DNA from: a virus
UHGV virus genome: UHGV-0199485
Length of the DNA stretch: 11,900 nucleotides
Direction: 5' to 3' (one strand)
Positions within the stretch are counted from its first letter, which is position 1; each line of letters starts with the position of its first letter. The translations under genes were made by a program, and so were the position numbers. Below, piece after piece: positions 1 to 11,900 of the stretch. The notes beneath the pieces were generated by a model. It did not search any database, was not told the origin of the DNA, and worked only from the letters and a program-made list of their open reading frames with translations.

Positions 1-1524
1 ATGAAACGTGTAATCAGCTACATCAGATTCAGTTCTGAGCGACAAGCCAAAGGCGACTCACTACGCAGACAGTCTAAGATGGTTAATGACTGGCTTAAGG
101 CTCATCCTGAGTACTACCTTGACCAAGATTTATCTTTTCGTGATTTAGGTGTGAGTGGATTCACTGGTAAGCACTTGAAAGGTGGCTTAGGTGACTTTTT
201 AACCGCTATCGAGAAAGGGCTTGTTAAAGCTGGTGATACGCTCTTGATAGAATCTCTTGACCGTCTCTCACGTCAGGATATTGATATTGCTTCTGAGCTA
301 TTACGTCGTATCTTAAGGGCTGGTGTCGATATAGTCACACTGAGCGATGGTGAACATTACACACGAGAAAGTTTAAAAGACCCGTTAGCTCTGATTAAGT
401 CCATCTTGATTATGCAAAGAGCACATGAAGAGAGTCTGCGTAAGGCTGAGCGTATACAAGCTGCATGGGATGCAAAGAAAGAAGCTGCTAAAGCTGGTAT
501 CAAGATTTCTAAGCGTTGTCCTGCATGGCTTAAGCTTAATGATGACCGTAAGACCTTCTCTGTGATACCTGAGAAGGTAGAAACTGTGAGGAGATGCTTT
601 CAATTACGGTTAGAGGGTAAGTCTATTTGGGAGATTGTCAGGGCTCTTAATGATGAAGGTCACCAGACACTTAACCAGTACAAAGCAGGTAAGTTTGGTC
701 AAACCTCAGTGCAAGACCTTCTGAAAAATCGCTCTGTAATTGGTTACTTCACACCTAAAGGCTGTGAGGAGATAGCTGGTTATTTCCCCCCTATCATCCC
801 TGAGACTGATTTCTACAAAGTCCAGCAACTATCATATTCTCGTTACGGTAGAAAACCTGCTTCAGATAAACCATTGAGTGTGAATCTCTTTAAAGGTGTT
901 ATCCGTTGTTCTGAATGTGGTCATGCTTTGATTATCACAGGCTTTAGCGATACAAGAAACGGGATTTATCGTTGTCCTCTTCGTAATGAAAACCGTTGTA
1001 GTGCTAAAGGACTTTCACGTAAGCAAACCGATGGTACATTGCTTGCCCTGCTATCCCGTATAGACCGATTTGATAGCGATATGACGAATACCATAGACAC
1101 ACTGAAGCTACACCGTGAACACATCTCAAGCAATATTGAAAAGCTGGTACAGCTATCACTTGAAATTGAAGACTTGTCCGCTATTACCAGCAAACTAAAA
1201 CAGTTAAAAGGTGAGCTATCACAGGTTAATGCGGATATCGAGAAGGAGACACAACGCCTTAAATCTATTGATGTTGGTTGTTTGTCTGATTGTGACTTGA
1301 CTACAAAGGCGGGAAGGATTGAAGCACAACTGATAATCAAAAGTGCTGTTAAAGAGGTCATTTTAAATACTGCTAAACGTCGCTGTAAAGTGACTTTTCA
1401 CAACGGTAAGGTAATTGACTTACCTATAACAGAAGACCCCTCAGAGAATGTTACAGAGGCTATACAGTCGCTTTCTGAAGTCACTGAGAGGGGTTTAATA
1501 GATGTTGATGAGGTTATCATATAG
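1..1524 (+). CDS. Large serine recombinase (integrase-type)
   Basis: 507-aa ORF starting at window base 1. N-terminus MKRVISYIRFSSERQ places the resolvase-fold catalytic serine about 10 residues from the start. A long C-terminal extension follows, with Cys pairs (CSECGH ... YRCPLRNENRC, zinc-ribbon-like) and a coiled-coil tail, which is the large serine recombinase architecture. RBS and promoter lie outside the window. Confidence 0.85.
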   Translation: MKRVISYIRFSSERQAKGDSLRRQSKMVNDWLKAHPEYYLDQDLSFRDLGVSGFTGKHLKGGLGDFLTAIEKGLVKAGDTLLIESLDRLSRQDIDIASELLRRILRAGVDIVTLSDGEHYTRESLKDPLALIKSILIMQRAHEESLRKAERIQAAWDAKKEAAKAGIKISKRCPAWLKLNDDRKTFSVIPEKVETVRRCFQLRLEGKSIWEIVRALNDEGHQTLNQYKAGKFGQTSVQDLLKNRSVIGYFTPKGCEEIAGYFPPIIPETDFYKVQQLSYSRYGRKPASDKPLSVNLFKGVIRCSECGHALIITGFSDTRNGIYRCPLRNENRCSAKGLSRKQTDGTLLALLSRIDRFDSDMTNTIDTLKLHREHISSNIEKLVQLSLEIEDLSAITSKLKQLKGELSQVNADIEKETQRLKSIDVGCLSDCDLTTKAGRIEAQLIIKSAVKEVILNTAKRRCKVTFHNGKVIDLPITEDPSENVTEAIQSLSEVTERGLIDVDEVII

Positions 1525-1538
1525 TTGAGCTTCTATCG

Positions 1539-2312
1539 TCAGTAGCGCTTGTTAGGATTAACAGACAGCCTCTTCAAAACATTACCTGCACCAGCATTAT
1601 TAAGCACTTTCGAAGCTTGCCCATTAGCGGCATCTGAGAAGGTGCTTTTTCCATTCTCAACTCTGACACTTTTACTACAATTGATACGGGCTTGAAGTTG
1701 CTCATTAGAAAGTTCACTCGCAGAGCGATTATATAGCTCCTGACACATCAACATACCATTACCTAAACTTGTCGTAGTGTTCCCAGTGTTCTTTTTACTG
1801 GTAGCACCACCATCATTCGTGGTAGCGGTCTTGCCAGTAGCAGATGAAATATCAGTTTGCCCTACAATGGCTTTGAAGTTAATTTCCTGAAAAGTTAACT
1901 GGATTCTCAGACCATTTGAAATACCAACATCTTTAGAGGCTTTAAAGCTCGTGATAATGGAATCATCAATTTTAATTCCGTCTTTACAGATGACTGAAAT
2001 AATCTGCTTCTGGTCACGCCAGCTTTCAAGAGTGTCGATGAAGTTTTCTACTAATTGCCCCTGACGAGTTAATAATAAGCTACCTTCATAGCCAACTACA
2101 ACGACACCACTAATAGTGATTGTTCTGGGTGCTCTTTGCACATTATCTGTGACGGTTTGCCCTGATTGCATGTTCTGTGTAGTAACCTGCATAGGGCTGT
2201 CAAATTCCATGTTTTCAGTAGCTGATAAGGTTAAGAAGGCATCTACATTGTCTCTTAAGTGGAAATAGATGCCGTCTTTGCCAGTGTAACGAAGCTGATT
2301 AGTGTAAATCAT
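1539..2312 (-). CDS. Putative phage tail protein directly downstream of the tape-measure gene (distal-tail-protein position)
   Basis: ORF track gives 264 aa from an in-frame TTG at 2333. The first ATG (2312-2310) is preceded by AAGGAG at 6-nt spacing, so a 257-aa product from 2312 is preferred. Beta-rich N-terminal half, then a Thr/Asn/Gly-rich linker. The functional call rests on gene order after the tape-measure gene, not on a recognised motif. Confidence 0.5.
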
Positions 2313-2388
2313 TAAATTCTCCTTTGATTTCAAAGACTTAGTGCATTTTAATCATTTTTAACCAAGCCTTTGATATTTAAGTGTTTTA

Positions 2389-2458
2389 TCTGTTAAGCGT
2401 GAGCTACGTGAAAAATAATTTTTGGTGGGTATATCTGTTCAGGAGATTTCACGTAGCA
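2389..2458. repeat. Copy A of a 70-bp conserved dyad element (candidate activator-dependent promoter or recombination-type site)
   Basis: tctgttaagcgtgag-CTACGTGAAA-33 bp-TTTCACGTAG-ca. 68/70 identical to copy B (4534-4603). The 10-bp inverted-repeat arms are at 2404-2413 and 2447-2456. It lies between the tape-measure stop (2470) and the start of the next leftward gene (2312). Confidence 0.8.
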
Positions 2459-2469
2459 TTCGACTATTA

Positions 2470-4518
2470 TCAATCATCTTCTGGGAATGATGAACTTAAT
2501 AGCGTAGCTTCTGCGTATTGGTCGTAGATATTACTGCTAAAGGTCATAAAGCTGGTTTCATCTGGTTTAATGGCAACTTCACCACCAAGTGAAACTTTCA
2601 CAGGCTCCTGAATACGTTTGCTCAAAGCACTAATTTCATCTCTCAGGCTTTGGATATCCGTATTCGTTAATGCCGCATCTTGTCTCATGGTGATTAATTC
2701 TGGATGCTGGAAGTTAGCAAGATTCATAGCTGCACTATTAAACCAACCTTTCACATCGTCCATAGTAAATACTGGCTTAAGTCCAGATTCTTTAGCTAAC
2801 TCTGGTAATTTAGCTTGTGCTTCCATTCGTTCAGGTGTAGAGGCTAATCTTTCATAACCTGCATAGAGAGCGCTACCAGCTAATAGCATATTCCCAAGAT
2901 TCAGTCTTGATGGTTTCCCATTCTTTCTATTCACGTTATCCGCTGTAGTATCAGCAACCTGACCTAATCTTGTGATAGCAGTCATAAGCCCGTAAATACT
3001 TCTGGTTACACCAACAACTTTATTTACAGCAATAACACCAGCCAAGACTTTTAAACTATTAATCAAGCCAGAACCTAAAGCATCAACAACTTTCTTTTGT
3101 TCATCGGTTAAACCACGGTAAGCTAATGTCACCTCATCGAAGAACGCTCTTACCCTGTAACTGATATCAGTCAGGCTATCCACACCACTTGACATATCAG
3201 TCATCAAGCTACCAAGAGATTCACCAAGACTTTTACCGCTTCCACCTAAACTGTTTAAAAGCGTTGTTAAGCTTCGTGTGAAATCTTGCAGACCATTTTC
3301 AGAACCTCTGAAAATATCCGTTAATGAATTGTTCCAAGTATTCTTTAAGTTCCCTAACATTGTCTGCGTAGAGTCCTGAATAGCTTTCCAGCCACCTCTT
3401 GAATTAATCTGTGAACCAAGTTCTTTAGCAAACTTAGGGAGTGCATCAGAGGCTTTAACATCACCATTTTTCATCTTATCGAAAAGCTGTTTTTCAGTCA
3501 GACCTAAAGCCTTTGCAAATGCCTGAGTAGCACCCGGTAAAGCTTCAGATAGTTGCCCCTTAAGCTCTTCAGCCATCACCTGACCCTTAGAAGCCATCTG
3601 CGATACTGCGGTTAATGCTCTTTGAATCTGCTCATCTGAACGACCCATTAAACGAGCATATCCAGTTAAGTTTTTAAATAACTCTTCTGCCCCTTCAAGA
3701 CCCATCGTGTTCTTTGCAGATGCACCAAATGAAGCAAATTGCGCCTGTGTTTCGGTTGTGTCCATACCAGTAATTTGAGTTAAATCTTGAATGAACTTTT
3801 TGACCTGTGTACTTTGGTCACCGAATACGAAATCAATACTTCTTTCCGATGATGCACGTTGAAGGCCAACTTCCATAATCTTCTGATAAGCGGATAGTAC
3901 AGCCTGAAAGCTGATAAATGCACCTGCTGTTTTAACTGCTGCTGAACTCAAACTATCAAGACTATTAGCTGCTTTGTCACCGTTAATGCTGGTGGATGTA
4001 TGACCTCTGGCTTTAGCAATTGCTTCTCGTACACTTGAATTTAGTTTAGCAAGGGCTTCATTGAATTTTGAATTATCCATTGACCCAGCTTTAGCAGATA
4101 GCCCGTAAAACTGAGATTTGATGTATTTCTGCAAAATAGGGTCAAAGCCTTTTAACTTGCTCATGTTAGCCTGATAAGCTGCTCTTACTGCTCTATCACC
4201 TGTAACCCTTCTTGGCCTCGATTGTCTTGGCGGATTAATAACGTCATTAACCTGACTTGTGAAACGGAAAGCTTTAGTATTTTTTGCTCTAGCTTCCAGA
4301 CGGTCAAAAGTCTTATTAATTTTTCCTTCCATTGACTTCAAAGAAGCCGTTAAATTGCTGTCAAGTTTCTTGGTATCGACCTTAAACGCCCTATTCAAAT
4401 TACGTTCAATTCTTTGTGCTGACTGCAAAGCTGCCTTTTCAACTCTTTGCAAGCCCTTAACAACGTTCTCGCTGAAGCCTAGCTCAACGATAAAACTATC
4501 AACTGTGAATTTGCTCAT
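2470..4518 (-). CDS. Phage tail tape measure protein
   Basis: 682-aa ORF. The central segment ...SDEQIQRALTAVSQMASKGQVMAEELKGQLSEALPGATQAFAKALGLTEKQLFDKMKNGDV... fits the conserved tape-measure domain pattern. Helical N-terminal region and Gly/Ser-rich stretches are also typical. GAGGTGA lies about 10 nt upstream of the ATG. Confidence 0.75.
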   Translation of the reverse strand: MSKFTVDSFIVELGFSENVVKGLQRVEKAALQSAQRIERNLNRAFKVDTKKLDSNLTASLKSMEGKINKTFDRLEARAKNTKAFRFTSQVNDVINPPRQSRPRRVTGDRAVRAAYQANMSKLKGFDPILQKYIKSQFYGLSAKAGSMDNSKFNEALAKLNSSVREAIAKARGHTSTSINGDKAANSLDSLSSAAVKTAGAFISFQAVLSAYQKIMEVGLQRASSERSIDFVFGDQSTQVKKFIQDLTQITGMDTTETQAQFASFGASAKNTMGLEGAEELFKNLTGYARLMGRSDEQIQRALTAVSQMASKGQVMAEELKGQLSEALPGATQAFAKALGLTEKQLFDKMKNGDVKASDALPKFAKELGSQINSRGGWKAIQDSTQTMLGNLKNTWNNSLTDIFRGSENGLQDFTRSLTTLLNSLGGSGKSLGESLGSLMTDMSSGVDSLTDISYRVRAFFDEVTLAYRGLTDEQKKVVDALGSGLINSLKVLAGVIAVNKVVGVTRSIYGLMTAITRLGQVADTTADNVNRKNGKPSRLNLGNMLLAGSALYAGYERLASTPERMEAQAKLPELAKESGLKPVFTMDDVKGWFNSAAMNLANFQHPELITMRQDAALTNTDIQSLRDEISALSKRIQEPVKVSLGGEVAIKPDETSFMTFSSNIYDQYAEATLLSSSFPEDD

Positions 4519-4533
4519 TGTTCATATTTCACC

Positions 4534-4603
4534 TCTGTTAAGCGTGAGCTACGTAAAAAATAATTTTTGGTGGGTATATCTGTTCAGAAGATTTCACGTA
4601 GCA
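4534..4603. repeat. Copy B of the 70-bp conserved dyad element
   Basis: Same sequence as copy A with two substitutions (left arm CTACGTAAAA; core CAGAAGA vs CAGGAGA). It ends 15 bp upstream of the tape-measure ATG and directly follows a terminator-like hairpin. Confidence 0.8.
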
Positions 4604-4610
4604 CACATAC

Positions 4611-4653
4611 AAAAAAGGGAGAAACTACCGAATAATATCGATAATCTCTCCCC
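4611..4653 (-). terminator. Candidate rho-independent terminator for the 234-aa/71-aa transcription unit
   Basis: On the minus strand a 6-bp GC-rich stem (4617-4622 pairing with 4647-4652, GGGAGA/TCTCCC) with a 24-nt loop is followed by U6 (complement of A6 at 4611-4616). It sits about 50 nt after the 71-aa gene stop. The large loop weakens the call. Confidence 0.45.
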
Positions 4654-4701
4654 GTGTTATAGATTCGATAGAACCTATCTCATACACCCAACCAATCTTT
4701 T

Positions 4702-4917
4702 TTAATGCCTGACAAGATAATGTAATTCCGTTTCACCTATGATTTGAGCATCAGAAGGGATACGGTCAATACACCATTTTGGAATCTTGCGTGTTTTTGG
4801 TTTGTGTGAGGTGATAATTTGATGTTTGGTTTTAATTCTTAAGGCTGGCTTAGTTTGTAACTTTAAGTTTTCACAAACAGACTTAATAGTTTCATAGCGT
4901 TCTGTTAAATCAATCAT
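4702..4917 (-). CDS. Hypothetical small basic protein (71 aa)
   Basis: GAGGTG lies 4-5 nt upstream of the ATG. A 22-nt gap after the preceding gene suggests co-transcription. Lys/Arg-rich; no recognisable motif. Confidence 0.45.
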   Translation of the reverse strand: MIDLTERYETIKSVCENLKLQTKPALRIKTKHQIITSHKPKTRKIPKWCIDRIPSDAQIIGETELHYLVRH

Positions 4918-4939
4918 TCATCACCTCACATATGCATAA

Positions 4940-5644
4940 TTAAACAGCCTTGCTAAATTCTCGTGGAACACTCAGAAAATCATTGAAGCTGATAATCTGT
5001 GCCAACTCTTGACGGTACTCCTTAGCCAGCGCTTGATGGTCACTAATCAGCTTAGCCAGTCTTGATTTCAGCAAATTAATCTCATTTTCTCTTGCTTTCA
5101 TCAGTTTCTCTTTGGCAATTTCTTCAAGCTCAGCTTGTGATTTATCAGCAACAATTAGAGACAGTTGATGTGGCGCTCTGATGGCCCTTTCCGTACGAAT
5201 AACCCTTTGACCTTCTGGTAAATCTGCAATCACTTTACCAATCTCTACAGGGTCATACCCCCAACCGTCACGGTCTAGTCGAGAGAAATAAGCATAAGAA
5301 TTGGTTTGAAGCTCCATCAAAATAGCCATTTCGTCGATTTCGTCTTCAAGCTTGGACTGAATTTTCTCGTAAACACTTCTCATTGCTTCTTGAGAGTCTT
5401 TAATAGCTTGGAAATATCGGCGTTGCAGCTTCAGTTTCAAATCAAGCTCACATTCCTCATTCATCGAAAAATCAATTTCAACTCTTGGAATCTCGAGTGG
5501 TTCTGGTGGAATATATGGACCTTTATTTACTTCGTGTGATTCCCGCCAAGCTCTATCAAAAGATTCACGCAAACTTAATTCGTGAATATCAAGTGCACTT
5601 GGTTTGTTTTCGATAATCATTTCATGTTCATCACGGATAGACAT
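4940..5644 (-). CDS. Hypothetical acidic, predicted helical/coiled-coil protein (234 aa)
   Basis: AGAGGA lies about 9 nt upstream of the ATG. Glu-rich, with a C-terminal heptad-like segment (ELEEIAKEKLMKARENEINLLKSRLAKLISDHQALAKEYRQELAQI). No catalytic motif recognised. Confidence 0.6.
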   Translation of the reverse strand: MSIRDEHEMIIENKPSALDIHELSLRESFDRAWRESHEVNKGPYIPPEPLEIPRVEIDFSMNEECELDLKLKLQRRYFQAIKDSQEAMRSVYEKIQSKLEDEIDEMAILMELQTNSYAYFSRLDRDGWGYDPVEIGKVIADLPEGQRVIRTERAIRAPHQLSLIVADKSQAELEEIAKEKLMKARENEINLLKSRLAKLISDHQALAKEYRQELAQIISFNDFLSVPREFSKAV

Positions 5645-5676
5645 TATTATTTTTCCTCTTCTAAGATAATTTATGT

Positions 5677-5762
5677 TTCAGTTTTTAAAAAGCACACCTG
5701 ACAGCCTACGAACTTAGAAGAGACTTAAAAGCGTTTGCCAAGTGTGCTTTTTAAAAACTGAA
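5677..5762. promoter_or_regulatory. Perfect 21-bp inverted repeat separated by 44 bp (hairpin or operator candidate)
   Basis: TTCAGTTTTTAAAAAGCACAC (5677-5697) and its exact reverse complement GTGTGCTTTTTAAAAACTGAA (5742-5762). It lies about 30 nt upstream of the 234-aa gene start codon, inside the predicted leader. Confidence 0.5.
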
Positions 5763-6010
5763 TAGCCCTAGATAATTTCTTATAAAGGGCCATTCATAAG
5801 GTGAAGAAATTAAAAGAACATCTAAAGGATTCAAATGAATGAACAAAGATTTTTGATATGGCCTATTTAGTGTGGGCTAAATAAGCCATGACGAAAAGCA
5901 TTGCACCTTTCAGAATAACTATCCCTAGATGTAGATGGAATTGTTGAAAGAAATAAGAGAGAATTGCTCTCCCTATAGACTTCGGATAGAAGACTATCCT
6001 CATATATACA

Positions 6011-6039
6011 ATTATGTCATGCTCAAGGTTATTTGTCAA
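6011..6039 (-). promoter_or_regulatory. Candidate sigma70-type promoter reading leftward toward the 234-aa gene
   Basis: Minus strand TTGACA (6039-6034), 17-bp spacer, CATAAT (6016-6011). Confidence 0.35.
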
Positions 6040-6140
6040 CAGCTTTTTAACAGATTGGTAACATCAATTCTTATTTACTGTGTTACCTGCCAAGCAACCA
6101 ACAAATAAACCCAAAACTGTCCATAATACAATTAACGTCA

Positions 6141-6464
6141 TTAGTGAACCCTCATAGAATCCGCAACCAAAATATTGTCAGCGTACAGGATTGTCACAGC
6201 ACCTTTCAGAAATTGCTCTGGGGAAATATCGTATTTGTTCGTTTGCTCGATAACAAGCCTTTTCATGCTTGAGTCGCTAACGGGAAACATAAAACGTGGT
6301 TCACCAGTTTCAATCCCCTGAATAAAATCTTCAATTGCTTCTGAGTTTTCAGCCATCAGTTTCAACAGCCTGTCAAAGTCAATTGACACACCGGAATCAG
6401 TGAAAGCCTGTACCATCATGGCGGTGTCGGTATCAATAAAAATCTGTAATGGAAAGTTGTTCAT
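6141..6464 (-). CDS. Hypothetical acidic protein (107 aa)
   Basis: AGAGGA lies about 9 nt upstream of the ATG. A 15-bp palindrome AGATAG-ttt-CTATCT (6483-6497) sits immediately upstream of the RBS. No recognisable motif. Confidence 0.55.
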   Translation of the reverse strand: MNNFPLQIFIDTDTAMMVQAFTDSGVSIDFDRLLKLMAENSEAIEDFIQGIETGEPRFMFPVSDSSMKRLVIEQTNKYDISPEQFLKGAVTILYADNILVADSMRVH

Positions 6465-6651
6465 TTCTTAAAATCCTCTATGAGATAGTTTCTATCTAAT
6501 CCTATAAAACACATCTCAGACCTGCCAAAATAGCCATTCTGAGGCCAATAACCATGCGGGTTACAGAGGGAGTTGCACTGGCTGGTAAGGTAATTTATCA
6601 AATTAAGGTGCAACTCTGCCTGTAAAGTGCATTCTACCGTTACTTAGATGG

Positions 6652-7077
6652 TTATTTTGAATTGTCTTTATTAATCAATGATTTAACGTAGAAATACTGC
6701 CTCCGTGAAATACCATATTTTTCTGTGATGTATCGCTGAGATTGACCAGCATTTATGGCCTGAGTGATATCATCACGGTTATAGCGGTTACCACGGGATT
6801 TATATTTGTCACCATCCACATCTTCTGATGTATTGAAGTCTTCAATCAGCTTAATTGCATCGTGAAGGTCATCTTCTGAGGCATAATCGAAGGTATGGAT
6901 AATCTCAAAATCACCAGTATCTGCTGGTGCATTCTTCCATCTGGAGAAGCGGGATTTTAATTGCTGGTGTGTGAAAGGTTCAGCATTACGAGTTAAATCT
7001 TTCCATGTTCCGCTATTCTCACGGACAAGGTGGCCTCTATGGCGATAAAACGCATGATAATCAAATGTGCATAGCAT
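6652..7077 (-). CDS. Putative transcriptional regulator with C-terminal helix-turn-helix (Mor/C-like or resolvase-HTH-like)
   Basis: C-terminal segment RDDITQAINAGQSQRYITEKYGISRRQYFYV fits a DNA-binding HTH. The start codon overlaps the stop of the upstream gene (TAATG, 7075-7079), implying translational coupling. Confidence 0.55.
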   Translation of the reverse strand: MLCTFDYHAFYRHRGHLVRENSGTWKDLTRNAEPFTHQQLKSRFSRWKNAPADTGDFEIIHTFDYASEDDLHDAIKLIEDFNTSEDVDGDKYKSRGNRYNRDDITQAINAGQSQRYITEKYGISRRQYFYVKSLINKDNSK

Positions 7078-7367
7078 TAAACCCCCAGCCTATCCGCTAA
7101 TTGATGGACCTTTGCGCTTAACACCTGAATCATTGAGCAACCTGCTACTGCGGACTGTGCTTTGAGTAGTTCCAGTTGGTCCGTTGTGATTCTGATGGCC
7201 TTAGAACCCTCTGCAACACCCTTAACATTATCAAAAGGGGTAAGGGTTACCGGCTCTTTTAGAAGCTCTCCAACAAGCGCCGTATGCTTCATATCAGGGT
7301 ATTTGGCTTTGATTGCTGCCAGTCGTTCAAATGCCTCTGGCAAAAGGCGCGTAACTGTGTGAGTCAT
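7077..7367 (-). CDS. Ribbon-helix-helix-type DNA-binding protein (96 aa)
   Basis: AAGGAG lies 8 nt upstream of the ATG. C-terminal half KAIRITTDQLELLKAQSAVAGCSMIQVLSAKVHQLAD fits the beta-strand / helix / G-x-S turn / helix pattern of RHH repressors; the N-terminal half is RHH-like but less canonical. First gene downstream of the leftward promoter. Confidence 0.5.
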   Translation of the reverse strand: MTHTVTRLLPEAFERLAAIKAKYPDMKHTALVGELLKEPVTLTPFDNVKGVAEGSKAIRITTDQLELLKAQSAVAGCSMIQVLSAKVHQLADRLGV

Positions 7368-7402
7368 TGTAAAATCTCCTTAAATCTCTTACTCATACTA
7401 CA

Positions 7403-7453
7403 ATCTTAACATTTATTTAACATGTTGTCAACATCTCATTTACATGATATTAT
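7403..7453. promoter_or_regulatory. Divergent back-to-back promoters sharing a 13-bp palindromic operator
   Basis: Leftward: TTGACA (7431-7426), 17 bp, TAAGAT (7408-7403). Rightward: TTGTCA (7425-7430), 17 bp, TATTAT (7448-7453). The two -35 hexamers overlap inside the palindrome ATGTTG-t-CAACAT (7422-7434). Confidence 0.5.
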
Positions 7454-7503
7454 GGTTATAGGGGCTGATACAGGTGCTGTTTCCTTTCACAAAAGGAAAA
7501 TTA

Positions 7504-7680
7504 ATGCATGATTTTTTCACAGCAATTATTGAATCTCATCGTTTTAGCTCGTTGGGCTTTGCGGTATTTATTGTGCTATTGGTGTTTTGCGTTATGAATC
7601 GAGTCATTACAAAAAAGACAAAGCTTACAATTCGACTTAAACTTCTTCGTGTTGAGATAGAGATTTCAGTAAATAAATAG
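7504..7680 (+). CDS. Small predicted membrane protein (58 aa)
   Basis: ATG at 7504 is preceded by AAGGA at 6-nt spacing; the ORF track starts at an in-frame GTG at 7474. One hydrophobic segment (LGFAVFIVLLVFCVM) is followed by a basic tail. It is the only gene downstream of the rightward promoter. Confidence 0.4.
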   Translation: MHDFFTAIIESHRFSSLGFAVFIVLLVFCVMNRVITKKTKLTIRLKLLRVEIEISVNK

Positions 7681-7689
7681 CTGGTGGCC

Positions 7690-7986
7690 TTACCGGCACT
7701 TTCCCTTGATAATATTGGTGGCCCTCAGATTACCGGGGTCACCGTCTTTTAATCGTAGCTGGTGGACTGAATCCCAGATATCATAATGATACAGCACTGC
7801 AAACCTCAAAGCGTCAATCTTTAAATCTGTCACACCATCAAAAAAGAAATAATTCTTTCCTTCCTTCTTCGGTCGAATCCGGTAAACCTCCCCATGAGTA
7901 TCTTTCAGAAGATGACCTTCACGAGAAATGCTGTAGCGCCTTAATAGATAATCTTTGTATCGTTTTTCACCGTTATATTCTCTCAT
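7690..7986 (-). CDS. Hypothetical 98-aa protein translationally coupled to the replication initiator (weak HNH-like motif)
   Basis: Its ATG overlaps the rep stop (ATGA, 7983-7986) and GGAGGT lies 5 nt upstream. C-terminal VHQLRLKDGDPGNLRATN loosely resembles an HNH-type motif but lacks the canonical residue pair, so a nuclease assignment is tentative. Confidence 0.5.
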   Translation of the reverse strand: MREYNGEKRYKDYLLRRYSISREGHLLKDTHGEVYRIRPKKEGKNYFFFDGVTDLKIDALRFAVLYHYDIWDSVHQLRLKDGDPGNLRATNIIKGKCR

Positions 7987-8897
7987 TGGATACCTCCACC
8001 TGCATAGTACATTTTAGGCTTAACCCTTTGCTTCTTATTTTCACTAACTACTTTCTTCTTTGGTGTGAAAGAAAAGTCATCATCGTCACCATCATCAAAG
8101 TCATCGAGGTCATTAACCTTGTTCTTTAGCTTCGCCATTTCAATGCGTGATTTAATCTCTGCTTTGCGTTGTGCTTTTTTAATAGCCTCTTCACGCTCTG
8201 ACTCTTCATCAAGGTAATCATCGAAGGGGTCCATCTCATCATCAGTGGCGGGGCACTGTGTGTTTTTATGGTCACTATCAACATTCACATCAGAGATTTT
8301 ATCCTCCTCTAAGTCAGATGTTTTAGAAGCCTCTTTAGTAGCTTCACTATCAAGGTCAGATTCATTCATAGAGAGAAAATCATTTAATTCATCCAAAGAA
8401 AGAAAGTCATCTTCTTTATTGTTATTAATAAGTTCTTTCTTGTTATTACTGTTATTATACGTGTCAAAGATTTTGACTGACTGAGTAAAAAATTTTGACT
8501 CAGTGGGTAAAGAATTTTGACTCAGTGGGTCATCTTTCTTGACTGACTGAGTAACTTTAGACTCCAGCTTTGCCTTTCTGGCTTCCTTAGCTGTAAGCTC
8601 TGTTAAAACTTCCGGTACTTCATCAAGTGAATAAACTTTAATAACACACTGATTGCTTGCAACGTTAGTTTTCTTGATTAAACCATGTGCCTCAAGTCGT
8701 TTCATACATGCAATCACGGATGTTCTTGTGATTCCAGCATACTGACCAAGATGAGCATATGAAGGGGTATAATATTGCCCCTTATCGTGATAAAACTTCT
8801 GTTCATTCAACATGACAGTGTAAATAATACGGTCGGCAGCTTTAACGCCATTAGTCATCTGATAAATACGGTCATCAAACATGTGGAATTTTTCCAT
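7983..8897 (-). CDS. Replication initiator protein (winged-helix, RepA_N-like N-terminal domain) with acidic C-terminal tail
   Basis: Preferred start is ATG 8897-8895 (MEKFHMFDD...), preceded by AAGGAAAA at 7-nt spacing; the ORF-track start at 8954 has no RBS. N-terminal ...DRIIYTVMLNEQKFYHDKGQYYTPSYAHLGQYAGITRTSVIACMKRLEAHGLIKK... resembles the DNA-binding domain of RepA_N-type initiators. Iterons and an AT-rich tract lie inside the coding sequence. The C-terminus is a poly-Asp/Glu tail (DDFDDGDDDDF). Confidence 0.6.
   Translation of the reverse strand: MEKFHMFDDRIYQMTNGVKAADRIIYTVMLNEQKFYHDKGQYYTPSYAHLGQYAGITRTSVIACMKRLEAHGLIKKTNVASNQCVIKVYSLDEVPEVLTELTAKEARKAKLESKVTQSVKKDDPLSQNSLPTESKFFTQSVKIFDTYNNSNNKKELINNNKEDDFLSLDELNDFLSMNESDLDSEATKEASKTSDLEEDKISDVNVDSDHKNTQCPATDDEMDPFDDYLDEESEREEAIKKAQRKAEIKSRIEMAKLKNKVNDLDDFDDGDDDDFSFTPKKKVVSENKKQRVKPKMYYAGGGIQ
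8471..8554. repeat. Four iterons at exact 22-bp spacing (candidate origin of replication inside the rep gene)
   Basis: TTTTGACTGACTGAGTAA (8471), TTTTGACTCAGTGGGTAA (8493), TTTTGACTCAGTGGGTCA (8515), TCTTGACTGACTGAGTAA (8537). An AT-rich tract (about 8395-8465) flanks them on the low-coordinate side. On the coding strand they encode a low-complexity linker. Confidence 0.55.
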
Positions 8898-9159
8898 TAT
8901 ATTTTCCTTTTTAAAAATAAAACAAAGAAAGGGCTGACCACGTATAGTGACCAACCCCAGAGGGAGTGAATTAATTAGAAGATGGACTGATAAAGGAACT
9001 CAGAAGCCTGAGCGATTACGCGAGTATTAACAGCAAAAGGAAAAGCCTTGATTGAATAAGAGGCCGTGAAAATCTGTCAATACCCTGACGCCTCCCAACG
9101 TTGTAACCTCTTAATGTTCTGAGTTCTTTTATCAGCCCATATAGAAACTATAACAGATG

Positions 9160-9214
9160 TGATTATAAATTGCAACAATTATTTCACAGAATAATTACTG
9201 TTTGATTATAAATT
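9160..9214. repeat. Two exact 12-bp direct repeats TGATTATAAATT in the non-coding control region
   Basis: Copies at 9160-9171 and 9203-9214; on the minus strand each contains TATAAT. Function unknown (operator or -10-like boxes facing the rep gene). Confidence 0.4.
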
Positions 9215-9763
9215 AAGCAATCAAGCTAAAGGGTATTGACAAAGGGCTTGACAAGATTTTACCCTTTTAAAAGATACTTAAAAGATTCCGTTAAACAGGG
9301 TTTTCTTTCTGGTTTCTTCTCTCTCTTAAAAGCCTTTTAAGAATCCTATATAGAAGCAGTAAGTCTCAAAAACTCTGTGGGATAATTTCTAAAACACATC
9401 TCTCAGACTTCACTAGACGCATTCTAAGCCCCTAAATCGGGTAACTCTGGCAATCACCTTAAGCACTCTGAAAATAGCTTCAAAACTCGCTACAGAGCTT
9501 CCTGTGAACTGGTCTATGAATAGCCTAAACTGGTTGATAGGTTTGATTAAAATCTGTACAGATAATATCCAGCCTCTAATTTTTTTATAAAATCGTATTA
9601 GTCCCTCTTCATTTCTCTTCCACCGAATTTTTCGAAAATATCACAAGGCAGTGTATAGCTGCTAAGTACCCGCCACACCAGCTATGTGACCCCCTTTGCA
9701 GAATTTTAAAATATCTATTGACTTTCTATGTGAACTGTTATAAAGACCGCTCCATCTCTTAGG

Positions 9764-9856
9764 CGTACCGATATAGCATACTAAAAAGGTATAGCTAACC
9801 CCCTGTAAAAACCATACCGATTAGCCTTGTAAAACACTTTATCGGTACGTTATACT
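9764..9856 (+). promoter_or_regulatory. Candidate recombinase promoter overlapped by symmetric TACCGAT motifs (possible res-like or autoregulatory site)
   Basis: TTGTAA (9827-9832), 18 bp, TATACT (9851-9856). Inverted repeat CGTACCGAT (9764-9772) / ATCGGTACG (9841-9849), plus a third TACCGAT at 9815-9821. Confidence 0.35.
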
Positions 9857-9891
9857 TAACTCATCAAATGAGTAAGGCAAATGAGTATATT

Positions 9892-10434
9892 ATGGCTAAC
9901 ATCGGTTATGTTCGAGTTTCAACAATCCAGCAGATTACAGACCGTCAACTTGAAGGGGTCGTACTGGATAAGGTATTTACTGATAAAGCATCTGGGAAGA
10001 ATACAGACCGTCCACAACTAAAGGCTATGCTCGATTATGTTCGTGAAGGTGACACTATCCATGTACACGACCTGTCACGTTTAGGGCGTTCTACCGTGGA
10101 TGTATTAACGCTGGTGGATAAACTTTCACAGAGAGGTATCAAGGTTCACTTTCACAAAGAAGGTCTGATAACTGGTGACGATAACCCCACGTCTAAGATG
10201 ATTCTCACAATCTTTTCAGCAGTGGCTGAAGCTGAACGTAAAATGATGCTTGAGCGTCAACGAGAAGGCTATGAAGCTGCTAAAGCTGCTGGTCGTGTAG
10301 TTGGAAGGGGTAACGGTAAAGCGATTGACAGAGAAGGTATTAAAGCTGCTCTTGCTGCTGGTAGTTCAATCGCTAAAGTAGCCGCTCAATTCAACGTTGC
10401 CAAGTCAACTGTACAGCGTATTAAAGCTGAATAA
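9892..10434 (+). CDS. Small serine recombinase (resolvase / DNA invertase family)
   Basis: N-terminus MANIGYVRVSTIQQ with the catalytic serine, a resolvase catalytic core (..DLSRLGRS..), a Gly-rich linker and a C-terminal HTH (SIAKVAAQFNVAKSTVQRIKAE). The ORF track starts 8 codons upstream at 9868; 9892 is preferred from the family N-terminal pattern and promoter position. Neither start has a strong RBS. Confidence 0.85.
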   Translation: MANIGYVRVSTIQQITDRQLEGVVLDKVFTDKASGKNTDRPQLKAMLDYVREGDTIHVHDLSRLGRSTVDVLTLVDKLSQRGIKVHFHKEGLITGDDNPTSKMILTIFSAVAEAERKMMLERQREGYEAAKAAGRVVGRGNGKAIDREGIKAALAAGSSIAKVAAQFNVAKSTVQRIKAE

Positions 10435-10460
10435 TTTCTCATCACCTATATAGATTCATG

Positions 10461-10484
10461 GCCTCCTTAATTGGGGGCTTTTTT
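10461..10484 (+). terminator. Rho-independent terminator after the small serine recombinase gene
   Basis: GCCTCC (10461-10466), loop TTAATT, GGGGGC (10473-10478) with one G-U pair, followed by T6 (10479-10484). It lies 27 nt after the stop codon. Confidence 0.6.
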
Positions 10485-10490
10485 GTATCC

Positions 10491-10582
10491 TCTAAGCGTG
10501 TACTACGTGATGATTCGGATAAGAATTATCCTCATAAAATCTCCTGAACACTTACCCACCCTCAGAAATAACTTTCACGTAG
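10491..10582. repeat. Copy C of the dyad element, with the core in opposite orientation and 29 bp longer
   Basis: Shares TAAGCGTG-nn-CTACGTGA (10493-10510) and TTTCACGTAG (10573-10582) with copies A/B. Its 62-bp core contains AAATCTCCTGAACAC-TTACCCACC, the reverse complement of the A/B core GGTGGGTATATCTGTTCAGGAGATTT. Confidence 0.7.
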
Positions 10583-10655
10583 GAAATCGTTAAGGGTTTT
10601 ATAGTTACACTATGTGACCAACTGCATGAATAGCGTTATATATCCCTGTATATAG

Positions 10656-10671
10656 CACTATATATATAGTG
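10656..10671. promoter_or_regulatory. Perfect 16-bp palindrome CACTATATATATAGTG (operator-like)
   Basis: Exact palindrome in the intergenic region between element copy C and the 3' end of the 277-aa gene. A TATAGCA motif also recurs upstream of the recombinase (about 9771-9795). Confidence 0.3.
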
Positions 10672-10896
10672 TCTGGAGAGGAACGACTAACACGATACAG
10701 TTTACCCTGAAAAGAGACTTCACAGATTCTTTATATATTTCAATGAGTTAGGATAAAAAGGGACTATACCGATACTGCATAGAATCTGTGTAAAACTGCT
10801 TAGATATTTGAAGAAATACCGTTAAATTGCATAGTCATAGGGGTTGGAACAAGCCCAACTACACCTGTTTATGTCCTGTTATTTACAGGCATAGCA

Positions 10897-11730
10897 TTAT
10901 TGGTTAATTAATTCATTCGACTCTATATTATTACCTTTTTCTTTTTCCTTTTTAATTTTAGACTCAACCATATCTAACATTTTTAATGCCTGTGTTGAAG
11001 TTAGCTCTTTCTTTTGTCGTAGCGCGTTACGTATGGTAGAAGCTTCAATATCAGAAACTGTTAAAAGTTCTTCTACCCTACTCTTCAATTGCTGTAATGA
11101 ACGGCTATTATCAACTTTAAAGAAATCATTCATTACATCAAGTGAGGCAACAATCAAATCCTGTAGTCTCTCTTTTTCTTTTGCTATATTTTCAATAGTT
11201 TGTTTTTCAATAGATACTGACTCTTTTAAGTTGCTAATCTCTTTAAGCATCTGTTTCCTTGCTGTCTCAAGGTCTTCTGTGACCAACTCTTCACGCTTAC
11301 CACGCTCTACTTCCGCTTTAATATCAGCATCAATTTTAGCATTTTCTTTCTCTTCTTCTCTGGCAACCCGAACCTTTAACCCCGTTAACCTGATTGAATT
11401 AAGGTATTCCTTTTCTTTTGAAAGATAAATATTTTCACTGTGTTTATCTGTAGCCCATTTTTGAGCAAGAGAAAGTAACCATTGAGCATAAGGAGTAATA
11501 ACAGCTAGCACACTTCCAAAAAAGACAGGTGCTAACAGATAATGTACATAAAAATATTCCTGAGACAGAATATAATCTATTCGAAACTTAACAGGAGCAT
11601 CACTCATAAAGAGCATTGCCAAGTTAGGCCAATTGAACCATACCCATGCAAGAATGATATATCCCCATAATGGGCTTTTAATCCTATCGTTTATTGCTTG
11701 CATAGTAGAATCTAACCATCCATCACTCAT
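10897..11730 (-). CDS. Membrane-anchored coiled-coil protein (277 aa), function unknown
   Basis: GAGGG lies 6 nt upstream of the ATG. Two N-terminal hydrophobic helices (WGYIILAWVWFNWPNLAMLF; VHYLLAPVFFGSVLAVITPYAQWLL) are followed by about 180 aa of Glu/Lys-rich heptad-like sequence. Confidence 0.6.
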   Translation of the reverse strand: MSDGWLDSTMQAINDRIKSPLWGYIILAWVWFNWPNLAMLFMSDAPVKFRIDYILSQEYFYVHYLLAPVFFGSVLAVITPYAQWLLSLAQKWATDKHSENIYLSKEKEYLNSIRLTGLKVRVAREEEKENAKIDADIKAEVERGKREELVTEDLETARKQMLKEISNLKESVSIEKQTIENIAKEKERLQDLIVASLDVMNDFFKVDNSRSLQQLKSRVEELLTVSDIEASTIRNALRQKKELTSTQALKMLDMVESKIKKEKEKGNNIESNELINQ

Positions 11731-11806
11731 AGCTAACCCTCGGAAATCTTATCTTTCTGTCTATCATAACCACAAGCATCACCTTTAGGAACCATCTGAA
11801 ACGGGA

Positions 11807-11854
11807 GGTGTATTTAGACCTTGCTAATCTTCATCAGACACGTTTAAATACACC
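11807..11854. other. 13-bp imperfect inverted repeat with 22-bp spacer upstream of the 277-aa gene
   Basis: GGTGTATTTAGAC (11807-11819) and GTTTAAATACACC (11842-11854), one mismatch. A possible -10 TATGAT (complement of 11763-11768) lies between it and the gene start. Confidence 0.3.
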
Positions 11855-11900
11855 ACCTAAAGCGATACAATCGCGCTATTAGTTTTTATGGTGGTAAAGA

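Follow-up and report, generated by a model that had tools for sequence, protein, structure and literature searches.

The window analyzed here, virus genome UHGV-0199485, is a stretch of 11,900 base pairs (bp) that encodes a large serine recombinase, a replication initiator, several small open reading frames (ORFs) and two tail proteins, a tape measure protein (TMP) and a tail tube initiator (TI), whose phage relatives are the Felix-O1-like virulent myoviruses (Ounavirinae) (Table 1). It comprises a whole mobile element of Escherichia coli and not a fragment; because the window is circularly permuted, base 11900 joins base 1. No capsid, portal, terminase, sheath, tube or lysis family was found for any ORF in Pfam, PHROGs, NCBIfam or PADLOC, so that TMP and TI are the sole virion genes detected and the set of virion, packaging and lysis genes is incomplete, as expected of a phage satellite. 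The original prediction, made from the letters alone, had already noted the absence of lysis, capsid and packaging functions and had proposed a satellite or integrative island rather than a complete prophage, a reading that has held up: the element closes on itself through its attachment site attP, its integrated relatives are bounded by the gene yecE and its tail-core genes are of Ounavirinae type. Its gene inventory was largely right, including the integrase at the window edge and the TMP, but it missed TI as a second tail gene as well as the closed circle with attP.

Table 1. Features of the 11,900-bp window in order of position (nt, nucleotides; aa, amino acids; HTH, helix-turn-helix).
Feature	Position	Strand	Remarks
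Large serine recombinase (integrase), 507 aa	1-1524	+	Pfam Resolvase, Recombinase, Zn_ribbon_recom
Tail tube initiator (TI, Dit-like), 257 aa from ATG at 2312	1539-2312 (ORF to 2333)	-	Dit_like; PDB 9ndy
70-nt inverted-repeat element, copy 1	2389-2458	-	TMP-TI spacer; stem GCTACGTGAAA / TTTCACGTAGC, loop about 33 nt
Tape measure protein (TMP), 682 aa (phage counterpart 735 aa)	2470-4518	-	TMP_3, PHROGs
70-nt inverted-repeat element, copy 2	4534-4603	-	Between terminator-like hairpin (4616-4653) and TMP ribosome-binding site
Palindromic motif GATTCGATAGnnnCTATCTCATA	4662-4684; second copy 6479-6501		Inverted repeat; second copy upstream of 107-aa ORF
71-aa basic protein	4702-4917	-	Directly upstream of TMP; no family match; position kept in relatives
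234-aa acidic, helix-rich protein	4940-5644	-	First gene of tail-gene operon; weak DUF7384
Long hairpin	5677-5762		27-nt arms 93% complementary, 32-nt loop; leader of tail-gene operon
Best sigma70-like promoter of the window	6011-6039	-	11/12 match; upstream of long hairpin and 234-aa gene
107-aa protein	6141-6464	-	No family match
141-aa protein	6652-7077	-	C-terminal three-helix HTH; AF2 HTH pLDDT 83-87
96-aa protein	7077-7367	-	Suspected ribbon-helix-helix repressor from reading the sequence
Overlapping divergent sigma70-like promoters	7403-7453		Between 96-aa gene (-) and 58-68-aa ORF (+); candidate 'switch'
Small membrane-like ORF, 58-68 aa	7474/7504-7680	+	Divergent ORF called at same position in relatives
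98-aa protein	7690-7986	-	Downstream of rep; no family match
Replication initiator (Rep)	7983-8897 (ORF to 8954; probable start 8897)	-	Winged-helix N-domain, acidic C-terminal half
Three 22-nt iterons	8463-8550		Inside initiator gene
Non-coding Felixounavirus promoter-region homologue	9228-9358	+	About 70% identity over 155 nt, upstream of ekra_108
Small serine recombinase (resolvase/invertase type)	9868-10434	+	Resolvase and HTH_7; variable cargo
Terminator	10460-10483		After small recombinase
70-nt inverted-repeat element, degenerate third copy	10537-10582	+ (opposite orientation)	Inverted repeat, 74% complementary
277-aa accessory protein	10897-11730	-	No family match; read as hydrophobic N-terminus with charged coiled-coil-like remainder
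attP of the large serine integrase	11804-11857		Imperfect inverted repeat, arms 11804-11828 and 11833-11857

The integrase carries three Pfam domains above their cut-offs and matches the PHROGs integrase family phrog_95 (E=4e-79). At the other edge of the window lies its attP, which has a probable TT crossover at 11830-11831, the dinucleotide being common to attP and attB; a dyad-symmetric attP with a 2-bp crossover, together with the three-domain protein, defines the enzyme as a large serine recombinase. Comparison of the junctions with those of relatives identified the end of the window (...GACCTTGCTAATCTT) as the right end of the integrated island, which continues straight into the left end (CATCAGACACGTTTAAATAC...) and then into the integrase ATG at base 1. 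Since the right end runs directly into the left end across base 11900/1, the window holds attP.

Locating the boundaries in flanking sequence and finding an empty site had been suggested as checks on the original prediction, and both lead to yecE. The integrated E. coli copies inspected (relatives are designated below by L numbers) are inserts of 11.3-12.3 kb that split yecE (DUF72) between yecD and yecN. In L001, L002, L004-L006 and L009, attL runs from yecE...GGGTGATTTT into CATCAGACACG, and attR runs from ...CTTGCTAATCTT into AGACAGCC. The attB rebuilt from the two chromosomal flanks is an intact yecE (100% identity), and the site is uninterrupted in 5139 of 5426 complete E. coli genomes. 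Flanks belonging to a full-length prophage or a plasmid, which would have spoken for either of those instead, were not seen; housekeeping genes lie on both sides of the integrated relatives, outside the two yecE halves, and a plasmid origin was rejected after a megablast search of 72,556 plasmids returned no match. With a large serine recombinase, an attP, attL and attR in relatives and an empty attB, the element has what is expected of a phage satellite as a discrete mobile element: the E. coli island is a complete, self-contained integrative element that uses yecE via attP.

Both tail genes score above their family cut-offs. TI scores 72.8 bits against PF21821 (Dit_like; cut-off 24.2) and matches PDB 9ndy_A, 'Tube initiator protein gp018', with E=6e-127, which identifies it as a tube initiator. 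It is 80% identical in amino acid sequence to gp87 of phage ekra, the first ~190 residues being almost identical and the last ~70 diverged; a phage-type tube-like domain (about aa 1-190) is thus joined to an island-specific C-terminal extension of about 70 aa that is kept even in Citrobacter islands. TMP scores 65.3 bits against PF20155 (TMP_3; cut-off 41) and matches phrog_4036 (E=1e-86), in line with its original naming as a tape measure. Against the phage TMP it is 28% identical overall, yet its first ~45 residues are nearly identical and the C-terminal motif LLSSS(F/Y)PE is common to both. The same pattern recurs in all islands examined, with termini (N-terminal ~45 and C-terminal ~10 aa) conserved with phage, a core that is 5-35% identical to phage and lengths of 682-710 aa, always below the 735 aa of the phage protein. 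No phage outside Ounavirinae had a closer TMP core (best identity about 34%).

The structure of a virulent relative indicates what the phage counterparts do. In the cryo-electron microscopy structure of the Felixounavirus Bas63, a hexamer of TI acts as adapter between the C3 hub and the C6 tube, a C-terminal TI extension of about 100 residues spans the baseplate and the C-terminal 25 residues of TMP contact the hub and the puncturing protein (PMC12609058). Given these roles, the island encodes two proteins at the core of tail initiation, and its TMP C-terminal motif corresponds to the Bas63 region that contacts hub and puncturing protein. The likeness to the Felixounavirus tail core (Bas63 gp17 TMP and gp18 TI; PDB 9ndy) lies in the TI match, the TMP_3 core and the conserved TMP termini. 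The differences are that the island TMP is 25-53 aa shorter with a core about 30% identical, that the TI extension is island-specific and that the two island genes are split by a spacer of 89-157 nt with a conserved inverted repeat, whereas the phage genes overlap.

Both genes are intact across islands separated by synonymous divergence (dS) of 0.2 to >2, from E. coli, another Escherichia lineage and Citrobacter freundii. The ratio of nonsynonymous to synonymous divergence (dN/dS) is 0.10-0.28 for TMP and TI together and 0.15-0.28 for TMP alone, similar to the integrase (0.15-0.19 between islands). The tail genes are therefore maintained under purifying selection and are not decaying.

Among 50,697 phage records, the only nucleotide matches to the window were Felix-O1-like virulent myoviruses (about 200 Felixounavirus records), and the matches covered 530 nt within the TI gene, at 90-96% identity, as well as the TMP gene's 5' end; a tblastn comparison of all window ORFs with phage ekra likewise gave matches for TMP and TI only. 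A domain-wise identity matrix separates the history of the two parts of TI. In the tube domain, the nucleotide identity of the window island, L001, L002 and L004 is 92-94% to phage ekra and no more than 78-81% to L005 and L006, while the C-terminal extension is 91-95% identical among all E. coli islands compared and about 53% identical to phage. Because the tube domain is closer to ekra than to L005/L006 and the extension shows the reverse, we conclude that gene conversion ran from phage to island: in some islands, the allele of a Felixounavirus that infected the host has recently overwritten the tube domain, and the breakpoint coincides with the domain boundary. Conversion this recent (92-94%) means that the island must have co-resided with an Ounavirinae phage. 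In Citrobacter, the island TMP-TI pair is about 72% identical in nucleotide sequence to Mooglevirus and Felixounavirus and is without a converted tract, which argues that the pair is ancestral to the island family and not a recent pick-up.

A separate observation concerns GenBank GU169904.1, 'Staphylococcus phage SA1' (147 kb), which contains TMP/TI sequence of Felixounavirus type, 92% identical to the window segment, and looks like a mixed or mis-assigned record.

Several non-coding sites are also shared with Ounavirinae. The promoter-region homologue downstream in the window takes in a double TTGACA and an identical 18-nt palindrome, CTTAAAAGCCTTTTAAGA (phage ekra 79877-80029, L008). No ORF follows it for about 500 nt, and where the segment lies, sister islands hold a Dam methylase gene instead. 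The segment might promote transcription of a small RNA or act to titrate a regulator of the phage. The terminator behind the small recombinase agrees with one of phage ekra (87089-87111) at 23 of 23 nt and with a second ekra terminator (36234-36260) at 25 of 27 nt. The palindrome GATTCGATAGnnnCTATCTCATA matches a non-coding site of Mooglevirus Sf15 at 27 of 28 nt (84337-84364; L029 1501-1528), where it is a single copy in the long non-coding end region. The diverged island L019 also has two copies (6495 and 9083). In L019 and the window island alike, the 107-aa gene or its counterpart has one of the copies just upstream, whereas neither phage ekra nor any other island checked has the palindrome. 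The shared promoter region, terminator and palindrome together show repeated acquisition of Ounavirinae DNA and are no proof of regulation by the phage. Together, the TMP/TI homology, the conserved interfaces, the recent phage-to-island conversion and the shared cis elements make up the relationship to a helper that is expected of a satellite.

The island also carries a putative replication module. Its initiator matches the PHROGs families phrog_8102, phrog_428 and phrog_270, annotated 'replication initiation protein' (E about 1e-10), and has 2393 homologues. A replication module had been anticipated in the original prediction, there described as RepA_N-like; the initiator and its iterons stand, but no RepA_N match appeared even at E<=10, and the N-domain gave only weak winged-helix matches (DnaD_N, HTH_36, HTH_Crp_2). 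A sequence search of the PDB with Rep, and with the 234-aa protein, returned no match, and no relative of Rep was found in IMG/VR. The three iterons lie inside the initiator gene, an arrangement known from lambda O; within the coding sequence they read as a repeated peptide, TQSVK. One source lists a Rep of identical sequence under the name 'MAG TPA ... Caudoviricetes sp.'.

Relatives of the island occur in E. coli and in neighboring genera. A megablast search of the complete E. coli genomes found relatives in 569 of 5426; every one is chromosomal, and collinearity with the window never exceeds 71%. The TI-TMP segment matches 475 of the 5426 genomes (about 9%, megablast), 183 of them over >=80% of its length. 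Strains with the island include PT62 (NZ_CP090448) and SCU-387 (NZ_CP051688). All E. coli loci read have one gene order (int-TI-TMP-small ORFs-rep), and a diverged metagenome contig integrated at yecE, L019, has the same compact architecture. The ORF series rep-small ORFs-TMP-TI is found in Citrobacter as well, at a different insertion site, where contig L018 has a 514-aa serine recombinase upstream of rep. In a search of one genome per species across 185,579 species, TI relatives were confined to E. albertii, a Citrobacter sp. and Shigella flexneri. The 234-aa protein was found only in Escherichia, Shigella and Citrobacter, and the 141-aa protein only in Escherichia and Shigella.

One metagenome assembly brings island and phage together. 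The exact TMP sequence occurs on a 12,683-bp scaffold (L022; ENA ERZ28649150 scaffold_424, SAMN10275330) that is 99.8% identical to the window and spans the attP junction. Its first 335 nt are a Felixounavirus TMP C-terminus and a phage-type TI start in the overlapping arrangement of the phage genes, so that the phage end is either an assembly join via the shared TI segment or a real phage-island recombinant. On the simplest reading, that sample was rich both in a Felixounavirus and in island DNA of circular or concatemeric form, and the assembler joined them via the shared TI.

Since the island has its own versions of the two innermost Felix-O1-like tail proteins, the most likely reading is that of a phage satellite which assembles hybrid tails. 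We consider it probable that the E. coli island is a satellite, or parasite, of virulent Felix-O1-like myoviruses (Ounavirinae) that integrates and replicates by itself and brings its own TMP and TI. Under this model, infection by a Felixounavirus would lead to excision of the island, with a directionality factor encoded by either phage or island, and the excised island would replicate from its iteron origin. TMP and TI would be expressed from the operon headed by the 234-aa gene and would replace the phage versions on phage hubs, together with phage tube, sheath, baseplate and fibres, to give chimeric tails about 8 nm (two tube rings) shorter, a figure calculated from 53 residues at roughly 1.5 Å apiece. 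Such hybrid tails might serve transfer of the island in phage capsids, lower the phage yield or both, as PLEs, described below, do against phage ICP1. Speculatively, and again by analogy with PLEs, a small island protein, possibly the hypervariable 234-aa one, may discriminate against phage TMP and TI. Helper-dependent transfer of the island is a point that we infer; the only circumstantial evidence for induction, packaging and transfer is the attP-spanning scaffold with its Felixounavirus sequence.

[quoted passage not shown] PLE TMP and the hub protein BhuB replace those of ICP1 in virions, giving tails 10 nm shorter, deletion of the PLE tmp cuts transduction by 96-99.9% and Rta of PLE11 blocks the phage TMP (PMC12987554). 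The same paper, from 2026, states that PLEs are the first satellites to manipulate tail assembly, and putative tmp genes were noted there only in Vibrio PLE-like elements and in some phage-inducible chromosomal islands of the capsid-forming type (cf-PICIs) (PMC12987554). PLE-like elements have been reported only in vibrios, and the PLE integrase is a large serine recombinase (PMC9410903). In the literature examined, the ICP1-PLE pair is the only case in which experiments document a satellite of a strictly virulent phage. The original prediction had been unable to name a family for this gene combination; no membership in a known satellite family was detected, but the PLEs offer a functional precedent (PMC12987554).

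Like PLEs, the island is chromosomal, has a large serine recombinase and its own replication initiator, lacks a full virion gene set and would be paired with a virulent contractile-tailed phage. It also shares with them a shorter TMP of its own next to a partner-type tail-core or baseplate protein, which is TI in the island, a tail assembly chaperone (TAC) in PLEs and, in PLE11, also BhuB. Of this tail gene set, TMP and TI are present in the island, under purifying selection, and no TAC was recognized. PLE RepA belongs to the RepA_N family, to which the island initiator does not belong. Further differences are the host (Escherichia, Shigella and Citrobacter, as opposed to Vibrio), the helper (candidate Ounavirinae, as opposed to ICP1), the lack of a recognizable equivalent of the tail assembly chaperone, NixI, TcaP or CapR, and the second tail protein, TI in the island and BhuB in PLE11. 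TI is moreover 80% identical to the helper's protein and partly converted, whereas the PLE11 tail proteins are 20-41% identical. The island would therefore work like a PLE but is not one, because host, helper and initiator family all differ from those by which PLEs are described.

Resemblance to other satellites is more general. With phage-inducible chromosomal islands (PICIs), including the Staphylococcus aureus pathogenicity islands (SaPIs), the island has in common its size (about 12 kb), the integrase at one of its ends with variable accessory genes at the other, a regulatory region of divergent type, an iteron replication module and a presumed dependence on a helper for virion parts. The helpers of PICIs are temperate, and PICIs mostly use tyrosine integrases, have Pri-Rep or AlpA modules together with TerS, Rpp, Cpm or Ccm, and take helper tails unchanged. 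The PICI/SaPI hallmarks (AlpA/Stl control, Pri-Rep, TerS, Rpp and capsid-morphogenesis genes) were not detected in the island with Pfam, PHROGs or NCBIfam. The cf-PICIs are likewise satellites of Enterobacteria that mix self- and helper-encoded virion parts, some with a putative tmp. Their own genes supply capsid, portal, protease, connectors and terminase, so that tails are all they steal, of which the island is the inverse, and the cf-PICI gene set (capsid, portal, protease, connector and terminase) was not detected in it. P4-like elements resemble it as E. coli satellites of a myovirus that replicate and integrate by means of their own and have regions of variable cargo. P4 depends on a temperate helper, which it controls through Delta/Epsilon, and has a tyrosine integrase, the alpha primase-helicase and capsid-size control by Sid/Psu; none of alpha primase-helicase, Sid/Psu, Delta/Epsilon or a tyrosine integrase was detected in the island.

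More tentatively, the island may represent a family of satellites that exploit a virulent phage, the first outside Vibrio, as a widespread Escherichia/Citrobacter island that swaps in TMP and TI and tracks its phage by repeated copying of the interfaces. We found no description of a yecE island or of any Felix-O1-like phage satellite in the literature searched, which excluded many subscription papers, so that a prior description is possible.

Several observations weigh against a satellite of Felix-O1-like phages. No terminase small subunit, mimic of a pac or cos site, capsid-size factor or tail chaperone was recognized, which makes packaging of an 11.9-kb genome into the capsid of an 87-kb phage the weak point of the model. 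All genome-derived copies are integrated, and the attP junction has no exact match in IMG/VR viral contigs. On the metagenome scaffold, the attP junction could reflect tandem copies or closure of the assembly graph, and the phage end could be an assembly join made through the shared TI segment. Finally, one relative has internal stops in its TMP gene and in its homologue of the 234-aa ORF.

The lack of a recognized packaging or capsid-remodelling gene would suit an island that serves defence alone, with TMP and TI as dominant-negative decoys that give defective Felixounavirus tails and protect the population, while the island itself is not packaged and spreads otherwise. Conservation of the phage-contacting parts next to divergence of the rest also fits a poison subunit, and the gene upstream, encoding the 234-aa protein, has two deep allele classes that do not track TMP/TI similarity. 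Blocking of assembly has precedents in Rta of PLE11 (PMC12987554) and, reportedly, in a prophage-encoded virion-assembly inhibitor (PMC10884400). Set against this, amplification and movement are what an iteron-bearing initiator gene and an integrase with its precise attP are typical of, islands recombine and reassort among strains with the same attB occupied in many lineages, and the attP-spanning scaffold was found together with phage sequence. Defence and transduction moreover coexist in PLEs, so that this alternative is partly nested within the satellite explanation. We regard a purely defensive island as unlikely, if still a serious contender.

It is highly improbable that the tail genes of an integrative element serve a resident prophage or tailocin instead of an incoming virulent phage. 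Lambdoid prophages do adjoin some islands and TMP genes are also present in some cf-PICIs (PMC12987554), but the neighboring prophages differ between strains, the only phage relatives of TMP and TI at meaningful identity are virulent Ounavirinae and the recent conversion at 92-94% requires co-residence with such a phage. Slimmer still is the chance of a decayed temperate Ounavirinae-like prophage that kept its integrase, replication and two tail genes: phage-derived structural genes beside an integrase and the internal TMP stops of one relative would agree with it, but the compact 11-12-kb architecture recurs in diverged relatives (E. coli loci and L019) with exact att boundaries, the rep-to-TMP-TI ORF series is kept in Citrobacter at a different insertion site, purifying selection acts on the tail genes across dS >1, the island-specific TI extension is conserved among islands and no other structural gene fragments were found.

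If the island is a satellite that substitutes tail-core proteins, such substitution would have evolved independently of PLEs and would be a general phenomenon, and E. coli would offer a tractable system in which the tail structures of the helper are solved (Bas63). The domain-precise conversion would mark the surfaces that must match the helper and those that must differ, providing a handle on the way in which a satellite tilts tail assembly towards its own parts. Typing, biocontrol and therapy of Salmonella and E. coli make wide use of Felixounaviruses. Because of this use, and because a sizeable fraction of strains carries the island, a resident interfering element would matter in practice as an overlooked determinant of the success of such applications.

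Among the remaining features, a 70-nt inverted-repeat element marks the tail genes. The original prediction had seen promoter-like modular elements in front of selected late genes; a 70-nt repeat does precede both tail genes, its first two copies being 97% identical, but its promoter nature was not supported, as no sigma70 consensus was found at the repeat positions and the phage collection and phage ekra gave no match even with short words and mismatches. On these grounds, a copy of a phage promoter was rejected. The element has a conserved 9-11-bp stem (CTACGTGAA / TTCACGTAG), a variable loop of 30-37 nt and an RNA fold z of -3.6. The copy in the TMP-TI spacer is present in every island from which a spacer was extracted, including one Citrobacter sp. 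genome, and the copy upstream of TMP in some islands only. The third copy does not fold; it faces the 3' end of the 277-aa gene and has no obvious gene downstream. Because the repeats also occur in islands lacking the small recombinase, we rejected them as sites for that enzyme. Its possible roles include those of an operator, of a phage-dependent promoter and of an element for the processing or stability of RNA.

The predicted structure of the 234-aa protein at the head of the tail-gene operon consists of long helices only (pLDDT 55). Its locus holds two deep allele classes that are 25-28% identical, with length and a few motifs in common, and the alleles are shuffled relative to the TMP/TI and integrase lineages (window compared with L001 12871-13581, L002 13321-14028 and L004 6535-7272). 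In IMG/VR, the protein occurs on seven contigs of 20-55 kb, three of which have attL and/or attR and none of which (0/7) has the attP junction. An Rfam scan of the window returned only sub-threshold chance matches, the long hairpin in the leader giving a spurious match to a plant microRNA.

The small regulatory switch of the original prediction persists as a candidate in the back-to-back sigma70-like promoters between the 96-aa gene and the divergent ORF. The 96-aa protein itself has no significant match to Omega_Repress (E=0.18). Farther along, the 141-aa protein is a probable DNA-binding regulator on the strength of its modelled C-terminal domain; a homologue has weak HTH_23/HTH_7 matches, and a fold search of the PDB with the model gave nothing significant.

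Cargo occupies the right-hand third of the island, where Dam methylase, differing small recombinases, an HNH protein and the 277-aa protein are found. About 900 nt between rep and the small recombinase, including the phage-like promoter segment, are without an ORF. The second, orphan serine recombinase of the original prediction is real, with Resolvase and HTH_7 domains, but is not a fixed part of the element: it is absent or replaced in relatives. An invertible segment around it was rejected since relatives carry unrelated recombinase genes in place of an inverted copy. The 277-aa protein is present in some relatives only, and in relative L006, positions 8359-8631 of the locus encode an HNH_3 endonuclease (E=1.6e-5). 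In the PADLOC defence catalogue, only a spurious LmuB match on the integrase coiled-coil was obtained (E=5e-4). A candidate packaging-site mimic was rejected, as the best match to the phage non-coding end (21/22 nt) was no better than the best of 100 shuffles; the motif TCTTAACAG was only weakly enriched.

Two further observations were made at the insertion site. The attP core occurs in two variants that use the same attB, ...CTAATCTT followed by CATCAG... and ...ATGATTTT followed by TATTAG... (L004/L005 compared with L002/L006). In some strains, elements lie in tandem, with a tyrosine-integrase prophage directly upstream in the same yecE region (L002 1-8003, E. coli SCU-387; L006 1-1500).

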